DNA of 64,000 bases. It comes from Negaprion brevirostris (taxonomy: Eukaryota). A program made the position numbers and the translations under genes. Below the pieces are notes generated by a model. That model was given only the letters and a program-made list of their open reading frames with translations. It did no database searches and was not told the origin of the DNA. The first letter of the stretch is position 1. Each line of letters begins with the position of its first letter. This document shows, one piece after another, positions 35,601-38,600 of the stretch. The stretch covers positions 91,754,114-91,818,113 of the forward strand of contig JARDVH010000097.1 of the NCBI GenBank assembly GCA_030324005.1, read 5' to 3'.

Positions 35601-38600
35601 AAAACACCCATAAATTGAGGGGACAGTAGAGGAATATAGAGAAACTATCCTTTTAAATATTTTGTTCTATTGAGAAAATACATTGACCATTCTGATTCTG
35701 TTCTATGTGATTCAGTGCCCCATGCTTGATCCATGGTATGCTGCACATTAGTTGAACTAAAGAGGACAATGATAGAAGCATCAAAATTGCCTGCAACACT
35801 TGACAGGGTATATGATACTTGCTAAAAAATTTGTATTCATCAATATCATGTTAAAGATGGCATCGAGCTCGGTGGTAATTTATCCCCTTCCTTACTGTAG
35901 ACAGCCACATTCAGTATGAAGGTTTACACGTGCAAAACCACCAACAACACGAGCTGCCAAGAAGTCACAGAATCATAGAATACTAGAGTCAGCACATTTG
36001 AGGAAGAGGAGGAAGAAGTGTGATGATAATACATTAGCATCACTTTAGTCATATTAGACCTCCCAACACAGATGAGTAGAGTCTATCCAAGTTATGGCAG
36101 AAAGAAACTAGAAGGATAGAGAGAGGAATGAAGGTTTGTAAATAGAGGTTTAAGAAAAAAGCCAAAGCAAGTACGGTCAATGCTTCTAGTTCACTCGATT
36201 CTACACTCTGAGTGCTTATTACAGCAAAACAGCTTGGAAAGCAGAAAATGAGACCTTTCATGACATAATGCTTCTCAGGGCCACTGCATCTCAAGAAGGA
36301 AAAAAAGTATTTTGGTCAATTCATCCACAAAGAATAATGATAACTTTATTGATTGAAAACAACCGGTCCAGGCAACTGAATTGACAATGCACGACGTTTG
36401 GTAGCCTGTTTCCAAGTCATTAGCTAAACCTTCACAATGGTCAATGCTTTCTGAAATCTGCCTGAAGGCATTCTTCTCCAAAAGACAATCAGATGAATAC
36501 TGACGCAGGTGTCTACAAAGTGCATCAGTAGGAATGCCAGCACAATTGAAAATGGAAACCAGTCTAATTAAGAGGCCATTTAAAATATAGACTTCTTGCA
36601 AATCTGAAATTCAAAATAAAATTACAAGACTACAGTCAGCATACAATGCTCATAATCAAAGTGATTTGAAGTAAATGGCAATTACTTAATTAATGTTGCC
36701 AACATTTTCCAGTTTTATTTCAGATTTCCAGCATCTGCATTATTTTGTGTTTGTATTTGACATAAACACAAAATGCTGGCAATATTTAGCAGATAAGATA
36801 GTGTCATGAAAAGACAAACAAAAAAAAAATTGATGTTTTAGGCCAATAACTTTTCTTCAGATAAAAGCAAATTACTGTGGATGCTGGATTTTGAAACCAA
36901 ATGAGAAAACACTGGAAAATCTCAGCAGGTCTGGCAGCATCTGTAAGGACTGTAAGGGGAGAAAAGAGCTGACGTTTCGAGTCCATTTGACCCTTTGTCA
37001 AAGCTAAAAGGCATAGAAAGTGGAAGATATGTGATGAGGGAATGAAAGATGAGTTGGAAACAAAAGTTGGAAACAAATTTGTACACTTCTGTGGCATGAA
37101 AAACTATCTAAAATGTCTCATTACCTGCAAAAAGGCTTTTGGAACCACCAGCAACCTGAACGACATTCAAAGCTGACAACGTCTCAGAAAACGAGGGGAC
37201 TTTTATCTGAAGGGGAAAGCAAAAGAGCTGTTAGATTCACCCAATATGCGGTAAAGTGGACCAATGAGTAAACAACAGGAAAGTGCTTTTAAAATCTTCT
37301 TTTAAGTTATTCACACAGGGAGTGCAGACAACTTATAATTCAAAGGATTAAACATGCTCCATCTTACGCTTTCCTCCACACTGAAGAAATAGATAATGGA
37401 TTATATACCTTAATGGGCAATATGAAAAATAATTAAGGACTCAGTAGCTTTATTACAGCGAACACAATTTTGAATGAATACGTGACATGCAAGGATAATT
37501 ATCTAATTCAAGCTGCTTAAAAAAATAGACAACAGAAATACCACAGAAACCAGTAATCATACCTTTGAACCTTTCAGTCCTCCGAGCTGGTCTTTGTCAT
37601 TTAGGCCCCAGACAAACACTTTTGTTCTAATAGTGGCCGCAGATTCTATGCCGGATGCTTTCTTCCTGACAAGGCTTGGGAGAAAGAAAACATTATTTCT
37701 CAAGTTACATTACACAAGGATAAGTTTCACCTCAGGATTTTAATACATACCCAATAAATCAGAAATTGTCATAACACAAAGCTTTTCTCAATTCCAATCA
37801 GTTCCATGACAAACATAATGCATTAGCTGGAGTGTCTAGTCAGTTTGTCAGTGGGCTTTGCTTGCAATTCACCCTCCAAGCAGAGACTTGAGCGTATAAA
37901 TCCGCACTTGCACTTCAGTGTAGTACTGAGAAAGTGCTTTATTGCCAAAAGTGCCATCTTTCAAATGAGACACCAGCAGAAATAAAAATGAGCAGAAATA
38001 TATTCTTATAAATAAAAATGTATTTAAATGTTACATTTTTTAAAGATCAAAATTAGTATGAACTGAAACAAAATAACTGTTGTTGGGGGGGGCCGTGCAA
38101 CCGGGGGATCATAATTAAAAGCGGTCTATATATACGCGCAACCTGCAGGACTCTAACTAAAGCAATGGCTGTTACCTATCAAGGAAGATGTGGCAATACA
38201 TCACTGCCACAGCCATTAATGAAAAATCAGAAACTTTCATAATGGAAAGATAGGTTTACAAAAGGAGTTATCAATGTACTGCAAGCTCCATATAATAAAT
38301 TTAAAATTACAGACAGACTTTCTAGGCTTTGCTCACTTCAAGTCTGAGAATTGCCTCCTAAAGGGATGGGTAATAAATGGTGGTCTTACTAGTGACACCC
38401 ACATCCCTTCAATGAATAAAAAGGTAAAATGCAAAGGCTAAAGTGTGCCAGGAAGTAATTGCAATGCTTACAGGAACACAGGGGTAGCACGGTGCACGTA
38501 GTGGTTAGCACTGCTGCCTCACAGCGCCAGGGACTCAGGTTCAATTCCAGCCTCAGGTCACTGGCTGTGTGGGGTTTGCACATTCTCCCCGTGTCTGCAT

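Follow-up and report, generated by a model that had tools for sequence, protein, structure and literature searches.

A minimal hammerhead motif with a U3-A8 core pair, carried by a truncated Penelope-like end repeat in a HERC2 intron

The window analyzed here, a stretch of 64,000 nt from Negaprion brevirostris, contains a 39-nt hammerhead motif within an intron of HERC2. We are confident, if short of certain, that it is the minimal hammerhead of a U3-A8 subfamily of Penelope-like elements, that it was brought into the intron on a truncated end repeat, and that the lone copy is probably an inert passenger. We refer to this subfamily as B and to its C3-G8 sister as A.

Results

Sequence and layout of the motif

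Read directly on the minus strand, positions 37005-36967 (36967..37005) are AGCU / UUGACAA / A / GGGUC-AAAUG-GACUC / GAAA / C / GUC / AGCU, so that the stems, GAAA, ACGU and GUC claimed in an earlier note on this DNA are present letter for letter. The 5' strand of stem I (AGCU, 37002..37005) pairs over 4 bp with its 3' strand (AGCU, 36967..36970). The core reads U3-UGA-C7-A8-A9 (36996..37001), with U3 at 37001 and A8 at 36996 as the swapped tertiary pair, and an extra A at 36994 lies between positions 9 and 10.1. Stem II, GGGUC/GACUC (36979..36993), has 5 bp (36993-36989 with 36983-36979) and a 5-nt loop, and is followed at 36971..36978 by GAAA, the palindromic ACGU (36975-36972), which could form an intermolecular stem III, and C17 at 36971. 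Cleavage is predicted 3' of the GUC triplet, between 36971 and 36970, where the earlier note had also placed it.

A structural descriptor matched the window once, at this motif, and matched none of 200 dinucleotide-Markov control windows. Genome-wide, a tight core pattern gave 565 exact matches compared with 0 for the reversed control. The motif has the features of published minimal hammerheads (min-HHRs): a core of the form N3-UGA-N-N8-A ... GAAA ... UH with a Watson-Crick 3-8 pair (here U3-A8), a short helix I, a G10.1-C11.1 pair closing helix II, one extra base between 9 and 10.1, and, in place of helix III, a palindromic 15.2-16.2 (ACGU) that would permit a dimer. An Rfam profile scan, which the earlier note had proposed as a check, found no hammerhead family at the gathering threshold, nor at E <= 10 in 35500-38500. 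This result lowers membership of the Rfam hammerhead families only and leaves the likeness to published minimal motifs as it was. Folding z-scores of -0.49, -1.83 and +1.59 were uninformative on their own.

The host element

The motif lies in a 195-nt, 5'-truncated end-repeat (pLTR) fragment with a long tail, which belongs to subfamily B of the Penelope-like element (36860..37054, minus strand). A search of the genome with a 231-nt query gave 2,427 candidates, and among the 40 that were scored the relatives match query positions 27-221 (window 37054-36860). The fragment is 81% identical to the end of L244, a locus that also carries an RT motif and an upstream ORF. Longer copies extend upstream into the end of an ORF with a GIY-YIG match (Pfam E 2e-4, 21.9 bits, below the 22.6 cutoff), and in 14 of the 29 loci fetched by that protein the motif is found 330-650 nt downstream of the GIY-YIG end. 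The next upstream stretch fetched 30 loci, five of which contain the RT motif Y-x-DD; four of these five also have the U3-A8 motif. In L244, L251, L254 and L263, Y-x-DD, the endonuclease side and the hammerhead motif follow one another in that order. For the RT stretch, Pfam RVT_1 reached only E 0.028, and the L097 stretch had no Pfam match. Because the RT motif, the GIY-YIG end and the hammerhead share single loci, we assign the motif to a Penelope-like element as its hammerhead, which bears out the earlier proposal of a Penelope origin.

A CX5CxxC linker was observed in L092 and L093, and in a decayed form in L097. Passages of PMC8557442 describe a zinc-finger-like CX2-5CxxC linker between RT and EN as a mark of Neptune and Nematis. 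The element is probably of the Neptune type, although the linker fits Neptune or Nematis alike. Partial tandems, inverted 5' copies and an optional tail of 30-40 nt are given in the same passages as typical of Penelope elements. Here, a partial tandem is present in L099, inverted upstream copies accompany 20/60 B and 26/69 A copies, and there are two classes of 3' end, the tail being long in 21 B copies, short in 46 and N in 3 (n = 70). Fold-back insertions are common among the copies (L035, L046, L047, L051, L054, L059, L060, L062, L103 and L124); several turn at or close to the stem I palindrome, AGCT, and would give a long hairpin RNA if transcribed.

A full-length copy, that is, a single ORF between two end repeats, was not found in 8 ten-kb stretches or in 30 RT-side loci of this gappy assembly, and the long open frames turned out to be runs of N. 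The window itself includes 3,551 N bases, and repeat copies often lie at gaps, which biases the assembly against young or full-length elements. In L098:5621-4525 (minus strand), two identical U3-A8 motifs lie exactly 1,000 nt apart among assembly gaps and may be either a real tandem or an assembly duplicate. Among 127 tails, no sequence was shared beyond the tail except by one pair, L234 and L283:2080, which have ~48 nt of downstream sequence in common (90% identical). A hammerhead-like core follows in L283, and this could be the true continuation of the element.

The window holds further Penelope-like fragments. At 36705..36753 (plus strand) lies an inverted and diverged piece of the tail of a related element, which lacks a hammerhead. 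A longer, older insertion survives in three parts: the RT side (26769-26628, inverted), the linker and endonuclease (26799-27189, plus strand), and an end repeat in which the hammerhead core is broken (27653-27782, plus strand). Related subfamilies have also left short pieces of their tails, in none of which the core is intact, at 7577-7471, 4850-4776 and 3384-3330 on the minus strand and at 53376-53442 on the plus strand. Thus, as had been noted before, the core is broken or absent in every other Penelope fragment of the window. With one intact motif in the window and no tandem copy nearby, the arrangement is not the series of tandem units, each with a hammerhead, that defines a non-LTR retrozyme.

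U3-A8 is the state of a subfamily

Exact genomic matches in a fixed context numbered 1,204 for U3-A8, 579 for C3-G8, 387 for C3-A8 and 61 for U3-G8, with 0 for each of the reversed controls. For a sample unbiased with respect to the core, we anchored copies on the tail, which gave 1,957 exact tail matches for B and 1,358 for A, and took the first 70 of each, all from contig C1. Among the tail-anchored B copies that cover the site in question, U3 is present in 40/40, A8 in 42/43 and C17 in 57/62. The A copies have C3 in 35/36 and G8 in 26/39, with A in 12 of the others, and at N7 there are 21 C and 16 T. The changes of G8 to A and of N7 from C to T in A copies are attributed to decay of the C7-G8 CpG. 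Outside CpGs, B has diverged by 7.1% and A by 10.1%, and B is therefore the younger. A third subfamily, with 16 matches, has C3-G8 and, in stem I, a U-A pair in place of the C-G of A and B. It is probably the oldest, given that 0/16 keep the ACGU CpG.

We conclude that U3-A8 is the state of a younger subfamily with an older C3-G8 sister and is not private to the window copy. Private CpG decay of U3/A8 in the window copy is ruled out by the 1,204 matches and by the tail-anchored counts at positions 3 and 8. The proposal of a lineage variant, for which a count of UUGANAA versus CUGANGA had been suggested, thus stands at 1,204 to 579. Two objections that the earlier note had foreseen also fall away, since the majority of the family has the structure and the U3/A8 changes are common to the subfamily.

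The mismatched combinations could have marked an intermediate subfamily that spread with a single mismatch. Among the first 100 of the 387 C3-A8 matches, 21 rows with a B-like loop were picked by hand; six of these had A context, nine had unrelated junction letters before the C, and six were apparently genuine. The genuine C3-A8 copies amount to ~2% of 1,204, no excess over the T-to-C background of 18/713. Similarly, 17 of the 20 picked U3-G8 rows had B context, or 1.4%, no excess over the A-to-G background of 15/512. With both states in B context at the level of background mutation, a propagated intermediate was rejected, and the mismatched 3-8 states look like decay after insertion. A search for other stem II subfamilies was equally unproductive: a loose pattern gave 362 matches and its control 362, and the 100 rows inspected were nearly all decayed A or B copies.

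The origin of B would then have been as follows. In a source element, G8 of the parental C7-G8 CpG would have changed to A and been matched by a change of C3 to U, in one order or the other, and the resulting U3-A8 source element would have founded the younger subfamily.

The 5' ends of copies pile up at stem I

To describe where copies begin, we numbered the first base of stem I (37005) as +1. The set comprised 60 B copies (10 rows dropped, 9 ending in N and 1 a duplicate) and 69 A copies (1 row dropped). Among the B copies, 27/60 begin at -5..+6, 0 at -28..-6 and 13 further upstream, and among the A copies 27/69 begin at -5..+6, with end calls that are accurate to a few bases. Copies of the family thus begin most often in the 5' strand of stem I. 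No excess of 5' ends is seen at the cut site, with 5/60 for B compared with 4.3 expected under a uniform, and crude, null, and 2/69 for A. Contigs of related runs likewise show joints at 37005. A reading of this end as a splice junction was rejected: the AG is kept in the copies, and no common upstream exon was seen by eye. Both subfamilies have TATAAA ~30 nt before stem I, with a different intervening sequence; of the sampled A copies, just 2-3 extend that far.

Since the 5' ends of copies pile up at stem I and not at the cut site, we infer that the RNA that is copied is mostly uncut and that transcription probably starts at stem I. The RNA would begin with the first base of stem I, driven by a TATA promoter in the end repeat. 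Reverse transcriptase would prime internally ~100-135 nt downstream, corresponding to the two classes of 3' end, and copy back to the 5' end of the RNA. Such priming and copy-back would yield thousands of short hammerhead stubs, and read-through of a tandem would account for longer copies such as that of the window. Cleavage by the ribozyme would need either the pairing of two copies through ACGU or help in folding from the element's protein. The pile-up at stem I would be an independent genomic echo of the uncut-template result obtained in vitro with the anole element. In the literature searched, we did not find this layout, with a TATA-driven start at the first base of a hammerhead; the Drosophila element has a TATA-less internal promoter.

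The position of the motif allows another reading of it, in which the 39-nt structure would be mainly a promoter-proximal element or a protein-binding fold of the element, with cleavage incidental. In keeping with this, the motif sits at the putative transcription start, ~30 nt behind a TATAAA common to both subfamilies, the templates are probably uncut, and PMC4209133 itself, in the passages available, allows functions besides cleavage. However, what is conserved is exactly the catalytic core together with the tertiary 3-8 pair, a pattern for which a promoter would have no need, and related motifs are described in part of the same source as cleaving as dimers, and in part of PMC11167929 as cleaving with protein. 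We consider this reading very improbable.

Possible selection on the fold in source elements

A and B differ at 6 of the 39 motif positions, namely 3, 8, two loop II bases, H17 (U or C) and one base of stem I, where the difference turns a wobble into a Watson-Crick pair. Over 38 aligned, hand-picked copies, the swapped pair of stem I is C-G in 23 and U-A in 10, and the 3-8 pair is C-G in 21 and U-A in 14 (35/38 together, in rows picked by patterns that favour intact cores). The named structure outscored all 500 shuffles and all slid controls on these copies. Being pattern-picked and descended from three source elements, the 38 rows count as three data points, not 38, and since copy counts are inherited, Fisher-type statistics overstate the covariation. 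The post hoc probability that six random changes would include both 3 and 8 is 0.02 and rises when the mutability of CpGs is taken into account, and the other four differences all fall on tolerated sites (post hoc p 0.003-0.01). As a whole, the motif has changed no less between the two subfamilies than the following 90 nt (6/39 versus 8/90 differences). We take these comparisons as moderate evidence of selection in the source elements, and the covariation of stem I between the subfamilies suggests that the fold was selected there.

If, instead, the source ribozyme was dead or irrelevant, U3-A8 would be a product of drift, with G8A due to CpG decay and C3U an unrelated transition that restored the pairing by chance. 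Only a single origin of U3-A8 is seen here, G8 sits in a CpG in the sister subfamily, and the genomic copies appear to come from uncut RNA, all of which this account would accommodate. It would also accommodate the statements, in parts of PMC11167929 and PMC8557442 respectively, that hammerhead mutants of the anole element did not hinder insertion in vitro and that some Penelope clades thrive without hammerheads. Against it, the four remaining A/B differences are all on tolerated positions, and the CpGs C11.1-G12 and C15.2-G16.2 persisted in both source elements but decayed in most copies. In addition, C3-A8 and U3-G8 never spread as a single-mismatch subfamily, and the same swap recurs in Schistosoma elements (described in part of PMC4209133). 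On balance, we regard drift as unlikely and prefer selection on the fold. The function of Penelope hammerheads is called unclear in passages of PMC8557442, and sister subfamilies that differ by C3-G8/U3-A8 and by stem I swaps, with no mismatched intermediate, provide a natural test of selection for catalysis.

The copy in the HERC2 intron

The exon upstream of the insertion (37125..37206, minus strand) encodes part of the RCC1-like domain of HERC2. It is identical to human HERC2 (PDB 7Q40) at 27/27 residues, and the preceding exon matches with E 5e-23. The host intron (34680..37124, minus strand) is 2,445 nt long. The donor GT begins at 37124, and the motif lies 119 nt downstream in the sense orientation, in agreement with the earlier placement in a HERC2 intron ~120 nt past the donor. 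An RNA-type contig of organism A (run X1, record 7), which may or may not have the insertion, joins the exon at 37677-37563 to that at 37125-37206 normally. Three stretches with a pyrimidine tract plus AG were observed on the sense strand within 240 nt of the donor (37006-37004, 36960-36941 and 36900-36888) and are possible cryptic acceptors.

The window copy starts ~50 nt upstream of stem I, and is therefore derived from a downstream end repeat. Alignment to relatives revealed two private changes: a 9-nt deletion that removes most of the TATAAA box (37032..37033, minus strand) and a tandem duplication of 9 nt (36941..36957, minus strand) where the sequence that follows the motif is pyrimidine-rich and acceptor-like. 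The motif itself differs from the inferred source state of B solely at two private loop II bases, 36987 and 36986. Both boundaries of the insertion are spanned by contigs from organisms D and E (14/603 and 24/712 differences), so the insertion is shared with them and predates their split. A domesticated intronic hammerhead of the human RECK type would be better conserved between species than its flanks; at the core positions, the contigs of D and E are swamped by paralogous ones.

This state of preservation raises the question of whether the host has kept the copy for its activity, as an intronic ribozyme able to cut HERC2 pre-mRNA together with another copy in trans or with protein help, and thereby to affect splicing or turnover. 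The sense orientation close to the donor would suit such a role. Every core base and both motif CpGs, which most copies have lost, are intact, and the descriptor that the window copy passes was passed by 0/58 B and 0/69 A sampled copies. The insertion is also old enough to be shared with D and E (X7 records 23 and 18; X8 records 31 and 26).

Nevertheless, the 565 exact core matches represent ~1-2% of a roughly estimated 25,000 copies, so that this proportion of B copies is expected to be intact by chance. Such a fraction is what neutral decay leads one to expect, and the finding was picked for being intact. Elsewhere the copy has decayed in the ordinary way, with 5 non-CpG changes in addition to the 9-nt duplication in the ~90 nt behind the motif. 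No second intact motif is present in the window. In folding predictions, the monomer misfolds, with G5-A6-C7 pairing with G16.2-U16.1-C17 (p 0.95), and in the intron context stem I forms with p ~0.1-0.2. The unusual intactness and the sharing of the insertion with two other organisms fit neutrality, and are not proof of it. We give very little credence to a ribozyme kept by the host. Just as improbable, in our estimate, is the more specific reading that the intact copy still cuts HERC2 pre-mRNA 154 nt into the intron and is kept across species as a retrotransposon-coupled HERC2 switch; on that reading, the element's protein or one of hundreds of intact sister RNAs, acting in trans, would assist. 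None of the present results points to a role of the motif in HERC2 RNA processing. The suggestion of the earlier note that a lone monomer may cleave weakly or only in trans agrees with the literature.

Discussion

U3-A8 in a Penelope min-HHR is not new. Passages of Cervera and de la Pena 2014 (PMC4209133) report ~1,300 U3-A8 Penelope hammerheads in Schistosoma, and natural U3-A8 covariation was published in 2011. The former was the only work found in a literature search on hammerheads and U3-A8. For shark or other Chondrichthyes hosts, the literature searched gave no description of a U3-A8 Penelope hammerhead, although supplements may list one. As a motif, the present case adds a vertebrate example to a published variant, and its value to specialists lies in the comparison of sister subfamilies and in the 5'-end result.

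The closest counterpart is the min-HHR of Cercyon from Schistosoma mansoni. In the passages of PMC4209133 that describe it, this is likewise a type I motif without helix III, with a 4-bp helix I, an unpaired base between 9 and 10.1, G10.1-C11.1 and a palindromic 15.2-16.2, and it is located in end repeats and occurs mostly as single dispersed copies. There, too, families with U3-A8 stand alongside families with C3-G8; min-HHR monomers did not cleave, and dimers cleaved weakly. The motif described here differs in having a vertebrate host, in belonging to an element that is probably of the Neptune type, and in a helix II of 5 bp rather than 7-8 bp. Moreover, a closely related C3-G8 sister subfamily permits a direct comparison here.

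Among vertebrate elements, the comparison is with the anole Poseidon element PAc of Frangieh et al. 2024 (PMC11167929). According to passages of that paper, the ribozyme depended on the element's protein for cleavage, and the substrate was mainly uncut RNA. Both are Penelope end-repeat hammerheads of vertebrates with two 3' end classes (in PAc an optional ~34-nt tail) and, probably in our case, an uncut template. PAc, however, has C3-G8 and an ORF that starts inside the motif. For the element described here, the start of the ORF was not located, and it has a CX5CxxC linker of the kind described for Neptune and Nematis.

The compensatory swap is the same as that in Perreault et al. 2011 (PMC3088659), where natural U3-A8 covariation is stated to be active in vitro; the passages at hand tie no example there to Penelope end repeats or to motifs without stem III. 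Finally, non-LTR retrozymes (bioRxiv 10.64898/2026.07.22.740005) carry type I hammerheads that are described, in part of that source, as related to those of Penelope end repeats, and one chondrichthyan genome is included. Retrozymes form tandem arrays in which every unit has its own motif, whereas the HERC2 intron holds a single truncated copy of an ORF-bearing element.
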